Part shown: in pieces, positions 9,562 to 19,622 of the stretch
Numbering within the stretch: position 1 is the first letter of the stretch
Layout: the number at the start of each line of letters is the position of its first letter
Made by a program: the position numbers and the translations under genes
The notes under the pieces: model-generated
Told to the model about the DNA's origin: nothing
Seen by the model: only the letters and a program-made list of their open reading frames with translations
Databases searched by the model: none
Assembly (NCBI GenBank): GCA_964347045.1
Contig: CAYFXC010000011.1
Coordinates: 68,248-87,869 of the forward strand
Reading direction: 5' to 3'
Length of the DNA stretch: 19,622 bases
Origin: an uncultured archaeon
GTDB lineage: Archaea > Asgardarchaeota > Hermodarchaeia > Hermodarchaeales > Hermodarchaeaceae

Positions 9562-12500
9562 TTAGGCAATTTGAATATTCAGGCTAATTGTGTCTGGAAA
9601 CATAGGGTTTAAGGTAAGTTCGTAAATTAGAATGCCTTTTGATTCTCGATGTTCAGCAACCACTGGTTGTCGAGGCAACTCCACTTGTGCTCCTGCAAGT
9701 TGAATTACTATGCCTTCGGGTCCTTGGGATAATGCCTCTGTTGCTAGTATTTGAAATCTAACTGTTGTTTGTAGGTCCTCTGAGGCGATTAACCAGAAGT
9801 CAATAGATACGCCATCCTTATTGGGATCTTGGAGCGTTAGCCAGGTTTGGAGTTTATCACCCGAGTAGGTGTTACACAATATTGGAGTTATATCGTACCA
9901 GATTAGATCAGTAGGTTTTGTTGAAGGGCGAAGGTATGGGAAGGTCTGTGTTTTTTGTAACACTTTGCCGTTAATGGTAACTTCATATTCAACTTGTAGA
10001 CTGATTCTGAAATATTCATCTGCCAAAGTAAAACCGGTGTCGGCATCTTCGAGTCTAAAACCTGAATCGAGCAAAGAATCCTCTCCCAATTGAAAAGCCC
10101 ACCGGCGTTCTAGCTGTCGTGCTAACTCAGCCTGTTCTTTAGAACCAATTTGACTCGCTTCATGAAGAATGTCTGTTAATCGCCGTCGAACCGAATCAAG
10201 ATTACTTTCACTTTGGCTAAGAAGCGTAAATATTAGGGGAACCTGTGTGTTTAGTATTCTTGACGCTTGTAACCGATTTGCTGTATCTCCGGCTTCTGCG
10301 CTTCGTAAGGCATCAATCCCTTCTCCATATATCTGGTCCCATTCTTTAAAAATTAGAATTTGCTCTTTGAGCTTCGATGTAACTGCTAAGCGAGTGCGCA
10401 TAAGTTGATCATATTGAGATATGACTGCTTCAATGTCCTCAGAATTCCCATCGTTGGCCGCTGCTTGAAGGGCTTTTTGTATCTGAGTTGTTGCCCTCCG
10501 TAATAGTCGTGATCTCGAGCTTTGGGAAGCAGTTAGTGTAGCAAGTTTTGCTGTAGCCGTTCCTGCTGCACTAAGAGCCAGAATCTCATTGCGGGGTTCA
10601 CCCTTAACCGCTGCGACTTTAGCTAGTGATTGAGCTAATTGTTCACTTTGTGTTAGCAATTGTTCCCATTGGGATGCATCTTCAGGGCGTTCATCATATG
10701 CCAATGAATTTACATTTCGCAATAAAAGGAAGGCAAAGGGGTAGGCCTGTCCGGTTAGCTCTTTGGACGAAGGCAGAAACGTGAAGGTTTGTTCTGCAAA
10801 GTCTCGTGCATCCTGCTTTAATTTTCGTATTTCTTGTACCTTCGTTAAACTGTTAATGCGTTGAAGAATAATCCAAATTAACAAGGCTCCAGCCTTCAAA
10901 GCTTGTACTTGTTGCCGTCCTTTGACTTGTGCTAATAATGCTGTTGTTGCATAGTCTTCGAGTTTATCTAAATCCTTCGTGGGGAAGGAGACTTTAACCT
11001 TCCCTGAAGAATCAGGAGATATTTGGGAAAGTAAGAGTTGCAATGCGAGTTGGGCTCGTATTTTAGGGTCTTTGGTATGAAAATAGAGTTGTTCATTAAG
11101 TTGATTGCTTTGTTCTATGAGACTCTTTGCGGAGTCACTTAAATTTTCAGGAGGTCTCTGTGCTAATTGGTGTGCAACTTGAGAAACAACTTCAAGATCC
11201 TGTTCATTGATTTTCGTGGATGGGGTGATCGCTGGAATAAGTTGGCTTGCATATTGGGCGGCTGAATTCAGAAGATTATTCTTCTCTTCTTCTGGGGCTA
11301 CCTCTACAAGACGCAATAGGGCATGTATGAACTCGCGATTGAGTGATTGGTAAGTCTCAGGTATAGCTCCAAGTTGTTGTAATTGATGCAATGCTGTTTG
11401 TTGAAATTTTGTGTGTAGCTTTGCCAGAGCATAACGGGCATCGAGAGCATCTAATTTTGGTAATAATCTTGAGAGACGGCTTTCTAGCCTTTTTGTGATA
11501 CGAAGAATGAGTTTTTGGTCTGCAGGACGATCTAAAAGCGGAATTGTACGTATGAGCGTTTGGAGCGTGCCGGTTAAGGCTTCATCAAGAAGTTCAGGGG
11601 GATCTGATGGAATCTCGCCAATAATCAATATGATGTTGTCAAGCTGTTTGACAGCTCCACTTAGATCATCAAGAGAACGGTAATGAAAAACCGCCGTTCG
11701 TGAAAAACGCAGGCTACGAAGGAGATCATCAGTAAGTGCTTTGGTAGACTTTCCTTGTGCTAGTTCAAACCATATTTGACTTGCCCGCATGGCGAATTTT
11801 GCAGTTGAATATGCATCACGAAGTTCTATTGCTGCATTCATTGCGGCTGTGATATGTTTAAGTTGAGATTGACGCAGCTTCTGAGTTGACATAGTTTGTT
11901 GGAGACGGGATTTCAAATGTTGTTCGCTAGTATCCAAAATCTTTAGGTCCTCAACGGCTTGGAGTGCTGTTGAAATCGTTTTTCCTTTTTCTTTACTCCG
12001 CTCCTCCATAGTTTTGTGAAGCGCTTTCCAATGCTTTGTGAGTTTTCGAATTAAAACAATTTGTTTTGTAGGCTCTTCTTCATATGCCAATGCAGAAATT
12101 GGTTCTTTTGCTTTGGTTATTTGGTAAGCTATGAGAGAGCTGCGTTGAAATTTCTCCGCAAATTTTAGGAGTTGTTCCAATTCCGCTTTCATTATTGTTT
12201 CTGGAATTATTAGGAGGCGATGTAAAAGGATTTGAAGCATTCTTTCTATTGTCGCGGCTTTTGTGGTTTCTAAGTTTTCAAGAATTGTTGCTATGGCTGA
12301 GGCTTCAAGAGCTATGAGTTCGTTTCTGTAATCTCCTTTTGGGACAATTCCTAGCAACCAATGGGTTTTCCACAATAATCCGAGTGGTTCGACTTTACGT
12401 TTAGCTGTAATATCTGCCAAGATGTTTTCAAGATGGCGTCGACCAAAATGTCGGACTTCAAGTGCTTCTCGAATCGAAATCTCGGTATTTTTAGCCAATG

Positions 12501-12639
12501 TAATAGCATCTTGCAGTTTATCTTCCAAAAGAAAAAGTTGGGAAACGTCATTGATTTCTTGGTCTTCGAGTTTCTGACGAAGTCTAGCTGGAAGGTTAAT
12601 TAAATCTGTTAAAGGCATGACGGGATCGACGCCAACCAT
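9562..12639 (-). CDS. Large hypothetical protein: HhH-like N-terminus, long alpha-helical (solenoid-like) body, beta-rich C-terminal domain
   Basis: Uninterrupted ~3.1-kb ORF. ATG at 12639 follows GAGGTG. The body is L/A/Q/E-rich and amphipathic-helical; the last ~170 aa show alternating beta patterns. Confidence 0.85.
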   Translation of the reverse strand: MVGVDPVMPLTDLINLPARLRQKLEDQEINDVSQLFLLEDKLQDAITLAKNTEISIREALEVRHFGRRHLENILADITAKRKVEPLGLLWKTHWLLGIVPKGDYRNELIALEASAIATILENLETTKAATIERMLQILLHRLLIIPETIMKAELEQLLKFAEKFQRSSLIAYQITKAKEPISALAYEEEPTKQIVLIRKLTKHWKALHKTMEERSKEKGKTISTALQAVEDLKILDTSEQHLKSRLQQTMSTQKLRQSQLKHITAAMNAAIELRDAYSTAKFAMRASQIWFELAQGKSTKALTDDLLRSLRFSRTAVFHYRSLDDLSGAVKQLDNIILIIGEIPSDPPELLDEALTGTLQTLIRTIPLLDRPADQKLILRITKRLESRLSRLLPKLDALDARYALAKLHTKFQQTALHQLQQLGAIPETYQSLNREFIHALLRLVEVAPEEEKNNLLNSAAQYASQLIPAITPSTKINEQDLEVVSQVAHQLAQRPPENLSDSAKSLIEQSNQLNEQLYFHTKDPKIRAQLALQLLLSQISPDSSGKVKVSFPTKDLDKLEDYATTALLAQVKGRQQVQALKAGALLIWIILQRINSLTKVQEIRKLKQDARDFAEQTFTFLPSSKELTGQAYPFAFLLLRNVNSLAYDERPEDASQWEQLLTQSEQLAQSLAKVAAVKGEPRNEILALSAAGTATAKLATLTASQSSRSRLLRRATTQIQKALQAAANDGNSEDIEAVISQYDQLMRTRLAVTSKLKEQILIFKEWDQIYGEGIDALRSAEAGDTANRLQASRILNTQVPLIFTLLSQSESNLDSVRRRLTDILHEASQIGSKEQAELARQLERRWAFQLGEDSLLDSGFRLEDADTGFTLADEYFRISLQVEYEVTINGKVLQKTQTFPYLRPSTKPTDLIWYDITPILCNTYSGDKLQTWLTLQDPNKDGVSIDFWLIASEDLQTTVRFQILATEALSQGPEGIVIQLAGAQVELPRQPVVAEHRESKGILIYELTLNPMFPDTISLNIQIA

Positions 12640-12821
12640 TGTATCCACCTCATTACACTAGGAAGAGGCGTAAAACAAGAATAAGAAATTTGGCGTTTTT
12701 GCATTGATCGGTCTTTACCCATACTATGTGGCCTTTCCATTCCGAAGCCCATTCTAGAAATCTTGGTTTACTTTGAGCACACTCTATAATGCTTATAATA
12801 ATTAGCTGACAAGACAGACTT

Positions 12822-13841
12822 ATGTGGCAAATTAAATTGAGAGGTACATATTATGATATCGGGTTAGACAACGGACGACGCCTTGTAGGTGAAAAGACAA
12901 AAGGGTTTCCACCCAAATTCTCGCAGGAAAATCTCGAACGCTCCAAAGCCTATGAAGAAGAAGTTCAAACACATTGTCCAGGCTTATTAGATGAATTACA
13001 CGGAATGGCAGAGGGATGCGAGGTAGATTATCAGGCTCTTGTCGCATTCGAATTAACTCCCTTCCGTTTGAATCCCTCATGTCTCGTCTTTGCAATCGCT
13101 GCAGAGCACACACAATCCGGTAAAGCCCTATTCGTACGGAATCATGAATGGATGGAAGAGGAAGCCAAGTTCCTAACGAACTGCACAGTCCACCCAGCAG
13201 GAAAGCTAGCCAGTTATGGGTTTACTTTCCTTTGGCCTCTGCTCTCCCGGTACGGTGGAATTAATGAGGCAGGCCTCGCAATTTCAGGGGCATCAACCTC
13301 GTTTGAAAATACAGGACCAGGAGTTATAATGAATATTGCCATGCGTTGGATTCTAGATAACTTTCGAACTACCGATGAGGCTGTAGAATTTATCTTGGAA
13401 ATTCCCAAAGTTTGGGGTACAAACTATATCATTATTGATCGAAACAACACTCTAGCAAAAATCGAGGCGCATAGGCAAAAGACCTTGGTGACTTACCCTG
13501 CAAAGGGGTTTGACATGGTAACATTAACTTATGAAGCCCCGGAAATGCGAAAATTCACTCCCAACGAGTCACCAGAAAAAATCAAGTTATTTGAATTGCG
13601 AAAACGCTTCTTGAAAAGCTGGTTCAGTGAAAACAAAGGTTCAATCACCGAACAATCAATAATCGACATCCTAGCGAACTGTGAGAATCAACTCCACTAC
13701 CACGAAAAGACTCCAGATGGAACCACTGGCACATGTTGGTCCTGGATTGTTTCCCCCCAATCAAATAAGGCATTCATTAGTCAAGGACCACCCTGCAAGA
13801 ACGAATTTAAACCCTATTCAGTTGACTATTCTTTTCACTAA
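12822..13841 (+). CDS. Peptidase C45 / acyl-CoA:6-APA acyltransferase-family Ntn hydrolase
   Basis: N-terminal prosegment (GTYYDIG...ELHGMAEG), candidate Cys nucleophile at S-CLVF, then RNHEW, GINEAGL and C-terminal GPPC. Confidence 0.88.
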   Translation: MWQIKLRGTYYDIGLDNGRRLVGEKTKGFPPKFSQENLERSKAYEEEVQTHCPGLLDELHGMAEGCEVDYQALVAFELTPFRLNPSCLVFAIAAEHTQSGKALFVRNHEWMEEEAKFLTNCTVHPAGKLASYGFTFLWPLLSRYGGINEAGLAISGASTSFENTGPGVIMNIAMRWILDNFRTTDEAVEFILEIPKVWGTNYIIIDRNNTLAKIEAHRQKTLVTYPAKGFDMVTLTYEAPEMRKFTPNESPEKIKLFELRKRFLKSWFSENKGSITEQSIIDILANCENQLHYHEKTPDGTTGTCWSWIVSPQSNKAFISQGPPCKNEFKPYSVDYSFH

Positions 13842-14176
13842 GATGGCAACCAAAGTCAAATCGTAGCATTCTTGTTTTTGAAGAGTGGCACAATATGAGG
13901 TTGTTTGAACAACAGGATAAGAAATTATGCGTATTATCTTTGATGAATCCTGTCTGTTTCATGAAGTTCTACACCTACGAATTTCTAAAAGGCTGCTTGC
14001 TATGTTTTTTCTCTAAACAATATTTGTTAAATTCTAACAAGTTCTTCAATAGGTCTTCGAAATCAACAAAGTAGAGAACTCCATAGAATAAAGATACTAT
14101 ATAATTTATATATTATTATGCGTTGTTTTGTACTTACATAAACAACCGCAAAATCGGAGACTCAAATTACTTGTCA

Positions 14177-15187
14177 ATGGCTACGCCAATCATTCCCATC
14201 GTCGTATTACTCAGTCTGGCAAGTGTGGTAGCCATAGCTATTGGGGCAAATGATAATACGATGGCTAGTTTAGTTGGTGCTAAAGTCCTTACATTGAGGA
14301 GTGCTGTCATTCTAGGCAGCATTCTATTAGTCATTGGAGCTTTGGTGTTAGGTCGTGGAGTTAGCACGACTATTGGCGCAGATATGGTCATCCAACCTCT
14401 CCCGGTTAATCTTGTTTTTGTTATTTCGCTAGCAATCATTGTGTGGATGCTACTGAGTGCTTTTCTTGGTAACCCGATTTCCGCAACTCATTCAATTGTT
14501 GGGAGCATTATAGGTATTGGACTGCTAAGCGAGCTGGTTTGGAATATACCCCTGGTTAGGTGGGACACCATCTCTCTTACTATTATTGGATGGCTTTTGA
14601 GCCCAATTTTTAGTTTTGCAGTAGCATATTTCCTTCAACGTTATGTCAGGCGAACATTTCTGTTAAGGGGTAGGGGTTTGGTCGAAGTGCAACGAAGAGA
14701 GCAGATCTTTGGTTGGTTGCTACTAGTGATGGTTATTATTATCTGTTTAAGTCGAGGAGGGAATGATGTTGCAAAGGCAATAGGTTTGTTGACTGTGCTT
14801 TTCACTGAGTCAATCAATTTTTCATTATTGTTATTACTAGGTGGAGTGGGCATGGGAATAGGATTATTGGTTTTAGGGCGCCGTGTAGTTAAAACGGTTG
14901 GAATTGAGTTGACGGAGTTACGTCCAAGTGCAAGTTTTTCATCGGCAACAGCAGGTGCGATTGTTTTGTCAGTGGGTACAATACTGGGGATTCCTCTCGC
15001 CGCAACGCATATTCTTATAGCATCGTTGATTGGTTCAGGGATGGCAAATCAGGTATCCACAAATAAAATAGTTCTACGGAAACTAATCATTAGCTCTCTT
15101 CTGACCGTTCCTGTCTCAGCCCTTCTTACTATCTGTTTCTGGGGAATTTATGAGATAAGCACTATTATTTTCTTACAAGCTTTTTGA
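14177..15187 (+). CDS. pit: PiT-family inorganic phosphate transporter
   Basis: Two PHO4 repeats: GANDN...PISATHSIVGSIIG and GGNDVAKAIG...PLAATHILIASLIG. ATG at 14177 is preferred over the TTG at 14123. Confidence 0.92.
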   Translation: MATPIIPIVVLLSLASVVAIAIGANDNTMASLVGAKVLTLRSAVILGSILLVIGALVLGRGVSTTIGADMVIQPLPVNLVFVISLAIIVWMLLSAFLGNPISATHSIVGSIIGIGLLSELVWNIPLVRWDTISLTIIGWLLSPIFSFAVAYFLQRYVRRTFLLRGRGLVEVQRREQIFGWLLLVMVIIICLSRGGNDVAKAIGLLTVLFTESINFSLLLLLGGVGMGIGLLVLGRRVVKTVGIELTELRPSASFSSATAGAIVLSVGTILGIPLAATHILIASLIGSGMANQVSTNKIVLRKLIISSLLTVPVSALLTICFWGIYEISTIIFLQAF

Positions 15188-15564
15188 ATTATAACTGATT
15201 GATACCAAGTCCAGAGAGCGAAAATAGGAAGGGAAAGTAAAAACCGATTTAATCATTCATTACGTAATAGGTTCTTTCCCCATTTAGCATAGAATCTCCT
15301 TCCTAAAAATAGTGAAACTATCTTTCCGATAATTATTTGACAATTCAGATTAGGATCCATTAGAGATTTATTACTGCAAGGATAAATCGATGAAGATGCG
15401 TTTATGTGTCTTGTTAGATGTACTGACGAGTTCCTATTCACGAAGTATCTTAGAAATCTGATAACTCAAGGTGAGAAAAACGGAATAAATGAACCTGCTA
15501 ACATACATTGCACTATTTCTGGAATTCAGTTTTTCTGTTCGAATATAAAGAAGAGCAATATACT

Positions 15565-16062: not shown

Positions 16063-16281
16063 ACCCATTCACCTTTAGCTTTCTGCTCGTATCTATCATT
16101 AAAATGTACTCTCTCTATCAAATTTAGGTCATCAAACGGTTTCAAGGATTACAAATGATTACGCACCGTTTCAATAAATTACAGGAAGCATTTTTTCTAT
16201 AACAAAATTTGGAAGTCTTTTACTCTGTTCTATACGTAATCTGAATTGGTTTCGAAGATAGAGCGGCTGTTTCTCGACCAT

Positions 16282-16308
16282 GATATAAAAGATGATTTGG
16301 TTCACATC
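16282..16308 (+). repeat. 27-bp imperfect palindrome, copy A (GATATAAAAG ATGATTT GGTTCACATC)
   Basis: Manual alignment gives 23/27 identity to copy B and 21/27 to copy C. Confidence 0.8.
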
Positions 16309-16720
16309 AATCAATATGTTGGGTAGACTCTGAGTTCATTTGGTCTTAATCGGATTTCAGATTTGGCAAACGTCATTGCAGGCATAATAGCACCACAAAA
16401 CCAGCGTCCATGGCTAGTTTTTTCAGTCACAGTTTTTCATTTAAATCCCTTCCAAATACAGCTTTGGGTGAGTATCAAAGACACATACGCAATTTCTGTA
16501 AAATGATTCTTATGAATTGGAGTTGTTCTTGGGGTAAACAAATTTTCTGAATATTACATCCTTCCTGAAAAAATTTCGAATACATTCACATGAGCAATAA
16601 TTTCAAAGACTTTTTGGGCTTGTTTTCATATTATTTAATTGGGAAATAGTGACGGAATAGCCAATCCGTTCGAGGAAGGCAGGATTAGCCGGACTCTATT
16701 TCAAGCGTTGTGTGATCGGT

Positions 16721-16909
16721 ATGAAAGTGTCAAAAGAATTGAAATGTCCGAAATGTGGGGAAAAACGTAAACTACGTTTAATGTTGCTAGATACGCCCGA
16801 AAACCGGGTGAAAGAAGATAAGGACCCTGATAGGATTCTTCTTGTAGCATCAAAGGCGTTTGATGGTAAAATGGAATGCCTGAAGTGTGGGCACTTCTGG
16901 GCCACGTGA
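16721..16909 (+). CDS. Small zinc-ribbon protein
   Basis: CPKCG near the N-terminus and CLKCGHFW at the C-terminus; ATG at 16721. Confidence 0.8.
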   Translation: MKVSKELKCPKCGEKRKLRLMLLDTPENRVKEDKDPDRILLVASKAFDGKMECLKCGHFWAT

Positions 16910-17152
16910 TTTTATTTTTAGTGGCTCTAGCTAATTTAGTTTATTCAATTCGTGGATTCTCGTGAGTGGAGTAGTAATTAGGTAGACTATATGCTATTTA
17001 GTACTATAGTTCGATTTTTCATAATACTTTAATATAGAAAGATTATTTCCCACCAGACGTCAAAAACTAAAAAATGTAGGGTTCTGAGATAGATTCTACA
17101 TTGTTTGGTAGAAAAAACCTACTTTACAGGTTAAAAAAATTATAAAACGATT

Positions 17153-17854
17153 GTGAAAAAAATGGTACTCAACTTAAAACAATGGGTTGTCGTTATACTA
17201 GCTATCATAACAGATGTTATGTTGGTTGTGTTTTTCGCGCTAGCTTTGGGTCCATATTGGTTAACACCTAACACTAACTTGTTGCTTCCCTTTTGGCAGC
17301 TTTATGTTTCACCGCTTTTAGTCATATCAATAATTCTTATTCCTACGTTGGTCTTCTTATGGATTGGCTGGAGAGAAAAAATCACCCTAAATATGTTCCT
17401 TTTTGCCATTCGACTTGGATTTGGATATCAGTTTGTTGCGGCAGGTTTTCAAAAACTAATGGATACAACATTTCTAGCGTCACCAGGGATTATCTCGGCT
17501 ATAACCGGCTCGACAAACCCTTGGCTCCAAGGTTTTGGCAATTTAATCCTACCTAATTATGCGGCCTTCTTATTGCTGATTGCGGTTGGTGAGGCCCTAG
17601 TCGGCCTTTCGATGTTACTTGGTGGATTCACGCGTCTTGGCGCCCTTGGGGGTATCTTGATGCTAGTCACATACCTTCTCACGCTAGGCTGGCTTTCTTC
17701 ATCTGTTCTCTATATCAACCAGCTTGGACCCCTAGCATTTCTAATAGTAGGAATATTTCAAGCGGGTCGATTCCTGGGACTTGATCAACTCTGGGGTCCA
17801 CGATTCGATGAATCCTCAAACGCAATCCTAAGATTCCTTGGCTGGTGGACTTAA
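17153..17854 (+). CDS. DoxX / TQO small subunit (DoxD)-like membrane protein with two extra N-terminal TM helices
   Basis: Family patterns IRLGFG..F..AG.QKL, GEALVGLSMLLG.FTR and AGRFLGLD. Confidence 0.82.
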   Translation: MKKMVLNLKQWVVVILAIITDVMLVVFFALALGPYWLTPNTNLLLPFWQLYVSPLLVISIILIPTLVFLWIGWREKITLNMFLFAIRLGFGYQFVAAGFQKLMDTTFLASPGIISAITGSTNPWLQGFGNLILPNYAAFLLLIAVGEALVGLSMLLGGFTRLGALGGILMLVTYLLTLGWLSSSVLYINQLGPLAFLIVGIFQAGRFLGLDQLWGPRFDESSNAILRFLGWWT

Positions 17855-17870
17855 AACCAGACGATGTTCG

Positions 17871-17918
17871 AAGGGGTGTAAAAGATACTTCCTTTTCGCC
17901 CCTTTTTTTATTTTTTTC
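17871..17918 (+). terminator. Intrinsic terminator-like hairpin plus T-tract after the DoxX gene
   Basis: AAGGGGTG(T)AAAAG-ATACTTC-CTTTTCGCCCCTT forms a 13-bp stem with one bulge and one G-U pair, followed by TTTTTATTTTTTT. Confidence 0.75.
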
Positions 17919-18192
17919 TCCAAAATGGCTAATGTTTTGTTTGTAAATATTTATGAACGGATTTTTCTCATCTTTAAAAACATCAATTCAGAGACTGTTG
18001 CAATCTACATTTGAGAAATTTATCAGATTATCCTCTATTAAGTTCCTACTAGCTCTTTGAATTGTTTTTGATTGAAACATTGCTCATATCCAAAAAGTAA
18101 AGGTCAATTTTTGAGGAGGGTGAGTTGTTTTTCCTTGTTTTTTATGTCATTTGAGCTGGTTCGAAGATATATTTCCCTATCATCAAACCAAC

Positions 18193-18219
18193 GATATGAA
18201 AGATGATTTGTTTTGCATC
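18193..18219 (+). repeat. 27-bp imperfect palindrome, copy B (GATATGAAAG ATGATTT GTTTTGCATC)
   Basis: 23/27 identity to copy A and 19/27 to copy C. Confidence 0.8.
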
Positions 18220-18382
18220 ATATAATTATGAACTAAAAAAACTAGAACTTTCCAAACCCTTAGGTTTCTATGCTGTATCTGGTAATTTCCCTATTGACTG
18301 GATTTAGAGTTCATGAAATGTAAATCACGAATTTTTTTAACTTTGTGCAGTATCTCGAACTATGCTTAAGTGAGGCTTCATT

Positions 18383-18838
18383 ATGACTGAAGAATATTCG
18401 GATTATTTGATGCATAGATCGCACTTGATAACCATTTTGGCTCTTATGAGTGGTTTCACGTTTACAGCCACGATAATTTTGGTTACCAGGCTTCCTGATC
18501 CGAATAGTGTTTTCTCACAAGTGATACTTTTGTTTGCAGCTATCTTGCTTAATGTCTTTGTGTTTCTGTTGTTGTTGAACACAGTTAACATCTATTTTTA
18601 TATACAGAATATTCCTGAACCAACCAGAACAACGAATTTCATCAGCCTAATGTCCGTCATAGGCATTGGGTTGTGGGGTTTTCTGTTACCCTTCATTTTC
18701 TTTGTCTTTAACCTCACACTTCTTGCATCTGTCTGCACGATTATATGGACGTTAATTCTTATCACGGGCATCATTGTTATCTGGAAGCCATTTGAACAGC
18801 GTCGAAGGGCAGGCCCTGTAAATCACCGGAAGAACTGA
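18383..18838 (+). CDS. Hypothetical 4-TM membrane protein
   Basis: ATG with GTGAGG upstream; four hydrophobic segments and a basic C-terminal tail. Confidence 0.8.
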   Translation: MTEEYSDYLMHRSHLITILALMSGFTFTATIILVTRLPDPNSVFSQVILLFAAILLNVFVFLLLLNTVNIYFYIQNIPEPTRTTNFISLMSVIGIGLWGFLLPFIFFVFNLTLLASVCTIIWTLILITGIIVIWKPFEQRRRAGPVNHRKN

Positions 18839-18878
18839 TTAGATCAAGGTGTCTCTATTAAGCAGTTTTAGGTGGATC

Positions 18879-18905
18879 GATGTAAAAGACGATTTTTGTC
18901 ATATC
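18879..18905 (+). repeat. 27-bp imperfect palindrome, copy C (GATGTAAAAG ACGATTT TTGTCATATC)
   Basis: 21/27 identity to copy A; lies between two convergent stop codons. Confidence 0.72.
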
Positions 18906-19049
18906 ACATATTACAAAATGCGTTTACAGGATTCATCAAAATGGATACACAGTATCATTTGTGAAAATGCCGAAATCTTCTCTTTAGAATCCACTGGATT
19001 AGACCACGGCAGTGGTCGATGCTCTGTTATGCCAATTCGATCAAGTTCT

Positions 19050-19259
19050 CTATGTGGCTGCGCCAACAATTAGGAGAATCAAACCAAGTATGATCAGGAT
19101 CAGCATGAGCTCCGAAAAAACGAACCCGGCTACCATGAGTTCATAGAACCCAAGATAGAAATAGGCTGCGTATAGACCAAAGCCAAGTACTTCCAAGATG
19201 ATTGGAAGAATCCCAACAATTAACAAGATTAATCCAAGGACTAGGATACCTTTCCTCAT
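19050..19259 (-). CDS. Small hydrophobic membrane protein (2 TM)
   Basis: MRKG followed by two long hydrophobic helices. GGAG lies upstream and TATAAATA is ~50 bp upstream on the minus strand. Confidence 0.75.
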   Translation of the reverse strand: MRKGILVLGLILLIVGILPIILEVLGFGLYAAYFYLGFYELMVAGFVFSELMLILIILGLILLIVGAAT

Positions 19260-19622
19260 CAGCTATCAACTCCATGGATGGAGGGATTCACATTGTCCTT
19301 CTACTATTTATAGCTGAGTATCCTCGTCTTTATACATATTAGATGCGTACCCATTTTTCACTACATCCCCTAGGTGATTTCCAAGACAAGTGGCCAAATA
19401 AAATGTAACTCAGCAGCATGTCCTGCAGGAGAGCAGTTGCAGTAGGCTGTTTTTCAGTGTGTTATAAGTCGCTTACTTGAGTATTGAAGATATATTTCAC
19501 TTTTTACAAATTTCGTAAATCCTTGCTGATTTGTTAATTACGAACTGTTTTATGTGGTCTTTACATAGTAACTTAACAGTGTTAAATTGGTTGAGCCGCG
19601 ATAGTAGGTACCACAGTGGAAC

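Follow-up and report, generated by a model that had tools for sequence, protein, structure and literature searches.

A polar repeat at the junctions of reassorting gene cassettes in Candidatus Hermodarchaeum

How Asgard archaea, the closest relatives of eukaryotes known, gain and exchange genes is a central question. Among the described systems closest to the locus presented here, the attC sites of integrons are imperfect palindromes of 57–141 nt, which fold as single-stranded DNA and carry paired R and L boxes. Multi-subsite resolution sites (Tn3-family res, cer/psi) are around 110 bp long, contain several spaced boxes and act only between direct repeats. The known archaeal dif site has an 11-6-11 layout (PMC2958812). 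The stretch analysed here (the window) comprises 19,622 nt of a Candidatus Hermodarchaeum genome, positions 68248–87869 of contig C11 in the source genome G000 (2.58 Mb, 89% complete), and its end is the end of the contig. Its distal part carries copies of a polar repeat of about 110 bp. An earlier reading of the window from its letters alone (the sequence-only reading) had proposed that three 27-bp palindromes, A, B and C, delimit the movable modules A-B and B-C in an integron-like array and are exchanged in the dif/lox manner within their centres. The cassette array stands; the exchange in the centre and the A-B and B-C units are not supported.

The cassette arrays and their junction repeat

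Palindromes A, B and C lie on the + strand in intergenic DNA with the sequences and positions originally described (Table 1), an A base following each. A degenerate 28-mer pattern allowing up to 3 mismatches matched the window at these three sites only and gave 0 matches in 200 dinucleotide shuffles. Profile search located around 25 copies of the repeat in G000, 1–4 kb apart and in a single orientation per contig, on nine contigs only: C11 (last 3.5 kb), C21, C31, C32, C38, C40, C44, C51 and C55. In contigs fetched across genomes, 117 of 118 copies were co-oriented within their contig. A sequence-only covariance model detected the repeat in 13 of 14 genus-mates (1–34 copies each) and in none of four sister-genus genomes. 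When one genome per species was searched across 185,579 species, the exact 21-mer core occurred only in Candidatus Hermodarchaeota, Ca. Hermodarchaeum yapensis and Promethearchaeota metagenome-assembled genomes. The metagenome sample consisted of 23 DNA stretches with this core (loci L053–L075), two of them on one contig. The arrays occupy several chromosomal loci, with flanks syntenic to C25, C8 and C9 of G000 in addition to the window; contig-end overlaps join some array contigs, none of them to C9. The vps4 gene was considered as an array anchor and rejected, as the sole Vps4_C match lies at C8:39572 and its contig carries no repeat at E<10.

The cassettes between the repeats are shuffled. 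Comparison of 85 junctions from 10 genomes revealed 36 pairs with a common downstream cassette and 27 with a common upstream cassette; the one pair with both neighbours in common is trivial, as it consists of two adjacent, overlapping junctions in G011:C20. The cassettes in common reach 93–97% identity, against 69–74% for the syntenic core (e.g., G000 vs G011, G000 vs G014), and a 2.5-kb P-type ATPase cassette shows 90% identity between G000 and G013. Because cassette identity far exceeds that of the core genome, cassettes must have moved recently between species. Among metagenome strains, 100%-identical cassettes stand beside different neighbours, and synteny breakpoints in relatives, which the sequence-only reading had proposed to inspect, coincide with the motif. 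An array of reassorting cassettes is well supported by these comparisons, and the sites are, as originally suggested, the points at which the cassettes of a co-oriented, non-attC archaeal array join.

A purely regulatory element (operator, promoter or terminator) residing in rearrangement-tolerant intergenic DNA would suit the T-run at the start of the repeat, its palindromic duplex and the AT-rich, TATA-like DNA that follows some copies. Nevertheless, the copies keep one orientation whatever that of the flanking genes, which occupy both strands between them, and four cores on C32 point at the 3′ end of a gene transcribed towards them; the repeat is thus not an operator or promoter. Moreover, the copies are confined to arrays, and the breakpoints are nucleotide-exact between 100%-identical cassettes. 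This explanation is largely refuted, and we leave it hardly any probability.

The palindrome, taken initially for the whole site, is only the 3′ module of the polar repeat, whose conserved stretch extends some 85 bp leftwards from the motif and ends just to its right. In the consensus, a left module made of a T-run, GTTAT and about 17 variable nt is followed by TTTCGAAGAC, a 34-nt segment (M) whose end lies in the left arm, and the remainder of the palindrome. The family-consensus palindrome, AATGAYGTGAAAG / ATGATTT / GTTTCACRTCATT, also written GAYRTGAAAG-ATGATTT-GTTTCAYRTC, is a far better palindrome than the window copies; it has a 13-7-13 (or 12-9-12) layout with a conserved, asymmetric centre. 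A block of about 55 bp runs from the TCGAAGAC box through the M segment to the end of the palindrome. It contains GAYRT three times, as direct copies in the box and the left arm and as an inverted copy in the right arm. One copy on C21 resembles a deletion between the first and second GAYRT, which we take as a hint only. Partial copies also occur, consisting of the palindrome alone (site C) or of the left module alone.

The palindrome does not behave like a folding element. No Rfam family matched in the window, RNAalifold on 16 copies gave 0 consensus pairs, and single-stranded DNA folding compared with shuffles gave z-scores of −0.7 to +1.25, i.e., no excess folding. Covariation between the arms is absent, with Watson–Crick counts equal to the independence expectation at 12 of 12 pairs in 108 non-identical copies. 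As the arms vary independently, the palindrome is probably recognised as duplex DNA rather than as an attC-like or HUH-type hairpin. A coding reading of the repeat (a peptide ending FEDxxAVSYK) was rejected, since the boxes are 14, 17, 18 or 19 nt apart and the positions that vary do not fall on third-codon bases; box spacing that varies by non-multiples of three indicates that the repeat is non-coding. The 16S rRNA trailer was likewise rejected as a source of the repeat, as the 16S 3′ end on C26 has another trailer. In this 3′ end (G000:C26, ~27055–27173, minus strand), about 100 nt that may represent an rRNA intron are inserted between GTCGTAACAAGGTAGCCGTA and CCTGCGGCTGGATCACCTCC, and the Rfam archaeal small-subunit model detected no 16S in the G000 assembly.

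Tandem accretion, in which integrative or homing-endonuclease ‘tail-swapping’ elements insert serially at one site, leave attachment copies behind and lose their enzyme genes, would account for the relic of a PHO4 gene 3′ end just upstream of B and for a strain-specific integrase found at a contig end. It predicts that older array parts have a nested, conserved order, yet no between-genome junction pair retains both neighbours, and accretion models are disfavoured for this reason. In addition, the repeat contains no master gene and no coding periodicity, the box spacings exclude a reading frame, the arrays lie at several loci, and the integrase in question (on C9) has no orthologue in the genus. 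We consider accretion very improbable.

Joints, enzymes and mechanism

The position of the joints was deduced from what is inherited with which neighbour. In segment-wise comparison, the variable stretch before the TCGAAGAC box goes with the upstream cassette (identity of 0.74 vs a background of 0.54), the M segment is tied to neither neighbour (0.68 and 0.70 vs 0.65), and the right arm shows hardly any linkage to the cassette downstream. The per-position profile of model-aligned junctions places the end of upstream linkage at position 60 and the box at 61–68, finds positions 69–117 at background and has downstream linkage begin at 118, the base after ...CACATC; at right-arm positions 113 and 115, pairs with a common downstream cassette are no more alike than random pairs.

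Strain-level comparisons, for which the metagenome contigs M055, M066, M073 and M074 were used, resolve individual events. M073 and M055 have a 100%-identical upstream cassette, and their identity stops directly after GAAGACATA. G006:C9 and M055 have the downstream cassette in common at 100%, with identity from TTCGAAGACATA, so that the whole block must have arrived with the downstream side. In M073 and M066, the downstream DNA is 100% identical and the right arms differ at 4 of 8 positions, identity starting 14 nt past the G of GATTTG. G012:C17 and M074 have a 100%-identical upstream cassette, and their identity spans the whole palindrome and then ends. Where both neighbours are the same, the block is identical in 17 of 18 pairs and has one single-nucleotide difference in the other, and it is therefore not hypermutable. 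As judged from these alignments, the ~55-bp block is shown to assort as a unit, with joints at both outer edges and with the block going with either neighbour. The 27-mer coincides exactly with the minimal module between the right-hand joint and its mirror position, which fits both site C and the copies that consist of the left module only.

These joints bear directly on the earlier proposal of a dif/lox-type core, a 27–28-bp palindrome at which host XerA would act in trans with exchange in the 7-bp centre, as in integrative mobile elements exploiting Xer (IMEX) or dif modules. The 13-7-13 layout with its conserved asymmetric centre, the lack of arm covariation expected of a duplex site, the conservation of XerA in the genus and the occurrence of the palindrome alone at a junction (site C) all speak for it. 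The crossover, however, does not fall in the centre: downstream linkage sets in only after ...CACATC, positions 113 and 115 and the differing right arms of M073 and M066 lying outside it, and upstream linkage ends about 55 nt earlier, in the TCGAAGAC box, so that M and the left arm, unlinked to the upstream cassette, would need a second joint there. The layout is also not the 11-6-11 of known archaeal dif (PMC2958812), and the known chemistry of XerA does not match the joint positions. We therefore hold XerA exchange in the centre to be improbable.

G000 encodes two tyrosine recombinases, a canonical XerA on C12 and a divergent XerA-like integrase on C9, which scored 155/114 and 50/36 bits on TIGR02249 / NF011946 (cutoffs 265 and 435); by these two models, IntI, the integron integrase with an extra domain of its own, is absent from the 89%-complete genome. 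The Y1 transposase family PF01797 is absent from G000 as well. Of the tyrosine recombinases, XerA alone is common to the genus. A search for the motif outside the arrays at up to 5 mismatches returned only poor matches, and nothing resembling dif is present at xerA. The xerA stop codon is followed, at a distance of 16 nt, by a perfect 13-8-13 inverted repeat (G000:C12:28131–28164; L002:4132–4165). Pattern search recovered this inverted repeat in 3 of 14 genus-mates, including G013 and G003, where it closely follows the XerA match; G013 and G001 carry changes in both arms that preserve pairing, and the loop is variable. It looks more like a terminator hairpin than dif.

The C9 integrase (G000:C9:121087–122139; L001:8821–9873) has 350 aa and a C-terminal zinc-ribbon-like extension. 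Its gene stops 127 bp short of the contig end, with the beginning of a small Cys-rich open reading frame (ORF) behind it. The integrase was rejected as the array enzyme, as it has no orthologue in the 14 genus-mates (best match 33% identical), and it probably belongs to a strain-specific integrated element. No recombinase is encoded in the window, as the sequence-only reading had noted. Its suggestion to look for one near motif clusters yielded nothing: at the array borders examined (C25 left end, C38 and the window), ordinary genes were present and neither a recombinase nor an endonuclease stood beside the first repeat. The enzyme, encoded neither in the window nor at any of these borders, would have to act in trans. 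Several kb inside the C25 flank, a Y-family DNA polymerase and an ATP-cone/Mrr-like protein with a restriction-endonuclease fold (G000:C25:6760–7593, L096) are encoded; the right flank of this array is syntenic in G012 and G013, and no link of the nuclease or polymerase to arrays is apparent. An empty-site comparison of the G011:C42 mini-array with G000:C8 revealed no attB-like remnant, and no attI-like array head was found in the genomes compared for heads and borders, which are incomplete assemblies.

The interpretation we favour, and consider rather probable, is that cassettes separated by the polar ~110-bp junction repeat are reassorted within and between Ca. Hermodarchaeum species through their blocks, by enzyme-made breaks at the block edges and an enzyme supplied in trans. 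The left module is inherited together with the upstream cassette, and recombination between ~55-bp blocks would reassort the cassettes. A dimeric protein may read the palindrome as duplex DNA, and the breaks would be made beside the GAYRT motifs. The block would pass via a heteroduplex, which replication resolves to one or the other parent; this would lead to joints at either edge and never between. A more specific version is put forward tentatively, with distinctly less confidence: a trans-acting recombinase might cut beside GAYRT at both outer limits of the palindrome and, some 25 bp upstream, at a third half-site, and form a 27–55-nt heteroduplex joint. Its chemistry would be unlike that of integron, Xer, serine-resolvase and HUH enzymes, and it would move genes between Asgard species.

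Several observations weigh against our interpretation. The right-edge joint is based on one clean strain-level case plus a statistical profile of 15–16 non-independent pairs. The block edges are also the edges of inter-repeat homology, and stalled homologous recombination could yield the same joints. The search for circular cassettes or empty-site products, advised by the sequence-only reading, gave none in the 23 metagenome loci or the G000 contigs, and candidates for the array enzyme, sought in G000 and at array borders, were not identified. To our knowledge, staggered breaks 27–55 nt apart have no enzymatic precedent. Finally, the window's own cassettes are 74–81% identical to their relatives, no closer than the core genome. 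By this measure the window cassettes are old residents, and recent mobility holds for the repeat family, not for A-B or B-C themselves.

The main rival to enzyme-made breaks is heterology-limited homologous recombination. The general machinery (RadA) would find portable homology in the ~55-bp block, either inside the genome or in DNA that has been taken up, and the main job of the repeat would lie elsewhere, e.g., as a protein-bound insulator or terminator. The coincidence of the joints with the limits of homology is what this predicts, whole-block inheritance from one parent is expected of a heteroduplex bounded by heterology, and block pairs at least 85% identical are 3.4-fold commoner in the same genome than in different ones, a bias that gene conversion would produce. 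Nevertheless, two strain-level events broke in the 8–12-bp TCGAAGAC box, with a 25-bp perfect tract only 20 nt off; M, about 65% identical between copies, should block branch migration; and strict co-orientation, four spaced boxes kept genus-wide and the asymmetric centre call for a specific protein. We consider shuffling driven by homology alone unlikely, though less so than the dif/lox and accretion explanations, and retain enzyme-made breaks at the block edges as the favoured reading.

Features of the window

The repeat copies and cassettes of the window are listed in Table 1, with the copies scored by nhmmer and DNA-level relatives sought in 30 related genomes.

Table 1. Junction repeats, genes and cassettes in the distal part of the window.
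Feature	Coordinates	Strand	Remarks
Repeat copy A, full	16206–16315	+	nhmmer E 5e-23; aligned with 15 other copies; core 16282–16308; T-run, GTTCT box, 19-nt variable stretch, TTCGAAGAT box, 34-nt M, 27-bp core
Decayed copy	16461–16507	+	model positions 47–93; box ATCAAAGAC, degenerate palindrome; nhmmer E 2e-4
Left-module-only copy, weak and tentative	~16528–16610	+	TTTCGAATACAT; pairwise alignment; nhmmer E just 0.82
Small Zn-ribbon protein gene	16721–16909	+	62 aa from ATG
DoxX/DoxD-family membrane protein gene	17162–17854	+	Pfam PF07681/PF04173
Relic of PHO4 (phosphate transporter) gene 3′ end plus trailer	17990–18100	+	
Repeat copy B, full	18114–18226	+	36-nt M variant; nhmmer E 3e-10; core 18193–18219
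Multi-pass membrane protein gene, 151 aa	18383–18838	+	weak, sub-threshold DUF7378 match
Copy C, palindrome module without left module	18879–18905 (core); 18878–18911 (core-only match)	+	
Cassette X	18906–19435	unassigned	75–82% in G011:C20, G014:C204, G005:C146, G009:C145, G012:C17
Copy D, degenerate	19436–19530	+	right arm GTTAATT.C.AA, common to C31:5393 along with the downstream cassette
Cassette Y, start	19531–19622	+	92% identical to G000:C31:5392–5487, behind another repeat there

The accessory region begins about 3.6 kb upstream of site A, as synteny with at least four genus-mates ends at window ~12690 (12690–12694), in the 5′ flank of the gene for a 1028-aa protein; the AAT-family, PHO4 and 167-aa genes that follow are therefore accessory, too. 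The 1028-aa ORF itself (9562–12648, minus strand) has no Pfam match and is syntenic across the genus. The AAT-family gene (12822–13841) lies between two occurrences of a second short motif, AATAAGAAATTTGGCG at 12677–12692 and GATAAGAAATTATGCG at 13917–13931, and is precisely absent between those two points in G010:C119; copies of the 13853–13931 sequence are found just past the same break in G013:C11, G008:C38 and G001:C57. This flanking motif looks like a second kind of cassette junction. Further on, 15301–15523 has a 75%-identical paralogous segment at G000:C40:6388–6611, whose orientation with respect to the array repeats is reversed; cassette content can thus be inverted between arrays.

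The interval A-B is not a mobile unit. Relatives have the Zn-ribbon and DoxX genes on separate contigs, and the interval contains decayed junctions and the PHO4 relic. The Zn-ribbon gene shows 74–81% DNA identity in 11 genus-mates and 2 sister-genus genomes, where it is not beside DoxX; the left-module copy upstream of it is homologous to a partial repeat at G011:C20:2832–2913. Relatives of the DoxX gene were found in G007:C43 and G009:C134 only, with an identical copy in Logan ERR2564004. The PHO4 relic, which directly precedes copy B, is about 75% identical to the last ~70 nt plus trailer of PHO4 (window 15115–15250), the intact gene end lying 2.8 kb upstream; its counterpart in G004, G003 and G008 is the end of an intact PHO4. 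From these alignments, the relic resembles an old gene end displaced by replacement of the tail together with an insertion, and its position just before B marks the A-B stretch as composite.

Mobility of B-C as a unit likewise found no support: neither the interval nor its 151-aa membrane gene has a DNA-level relative among the 30 genomes. In G011 and G014, full repeats precede the DNA found downstream of C, and what lies upstream of these repeats differs from the window; cassette X has other upstream neighbours in all five genomes listed for it. Cassette X contains no ORF above 70 aa, no Rfam match and no codon periodicity (44/36/37 mismatches by phase), and it is possibly a non-coding RNA or a pair of micro-ORFs. 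Exact protein look-up for strain variants of the window's own cassettes returned the same strain only.

Comparison with known systems

Arrays of this kind are not described in the archaeal integron paper (PMC9668308) or in the Asgard mobile-element and Hermodarchaeota papers searched. They represent a genus-wide, very active gene-cassette store without integron sites or an integron integrase and point to a recombination activity so far undescribed, for which the 27-bp palindrome together with the TCGAAGAC box provides a defined bait.

Several classes of elements share little with the Hermodarchaeum repeat. Hairpin systems (IS200/IS605, REP/RAYT, HUH) differ by the missing Y1 enzyme (PF01797) and the lack of arm covariation. 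Miniature inverted-repeat transposable elements (MITEs) and transposon remnants, dispersed in both orientations and with terminal inverted repeats and target duplications, are set apart by the array-confined, co-oriented Hermodarchaeum copies, and a target-site-duplication model was rejected since adjacent blocks are no more similar than non-adjacent ones (0.677 vs 0.674). In homing-endonuclease ‘tail-swapping’ (WHO-like) arrays, the repeat derives from a host gene end that was cast off, and an intact master gene and an endonuclease stand at the head; here no frame is kept, no master copy was found in G000, and the borders examined, in incomplete genomes, have no endonuclease beside the first repeat. 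Tandem accretion arrays and cis-mobilizable elements (CIMEs), built on attachment sites in tRNA or housekeeping genes, also have ~50-bp direct repeats between blocks of accessory genes; in contrast, no conserved target gene was found for the arrays described here, they have no array-end integrase, and their order is fully reassorted between species rather than nested.

The repeat may be likened to res and cer/psi in its ~110 bp, its spaced boxes and its use as direct repeats. It differs from them in having no array-linked gene for a serine resolvase or accessory protein and in the outcome, which is cassette exchange rather than cointegrate or dimer resolution. With XerA/dif, IMEX (CTXphi, TLC) and the pdif modules of Acinetobacter it shares a palindromic duplex site with an asymmetric centre, the lack of a module recombinase and the presence of host Xer. 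However, its layout is 13-7-13 (or 12-9-12) instead of 11-6-11, its joints lie outside the spacer, at whose borders Xer enzymes exchange strands in dif, and it occurs in dozens of copies at several loci, whereas dif is present once at the terminus; pdif sites alternate in orientation, whereas the Hermodarchaeum sites all point the same way per contig.

Sedentary chromosomal integrons and clusters of attC sites lacking integron integrases (CALINs), including the archaeal ones (Ghaly et al. 2022, PMC9668308), are unlike the Hermodarchaeum arrays in several respects. The latter are without IntI, an attC-like fold or covarying arms; their cassettes are 1–4 kb long, often with several genes in either orientation; a second joint lies about 55 nt upstream; and no attI-like head was found. 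Both, nevertheless, form long chromosomal arrays of unrelated accessory cassettes with one co-oriented site per junction, in which the site goes mostly with the upstream cassette end, the joint is placed at the outer limit of a palindrome, and cassettes pass between species.

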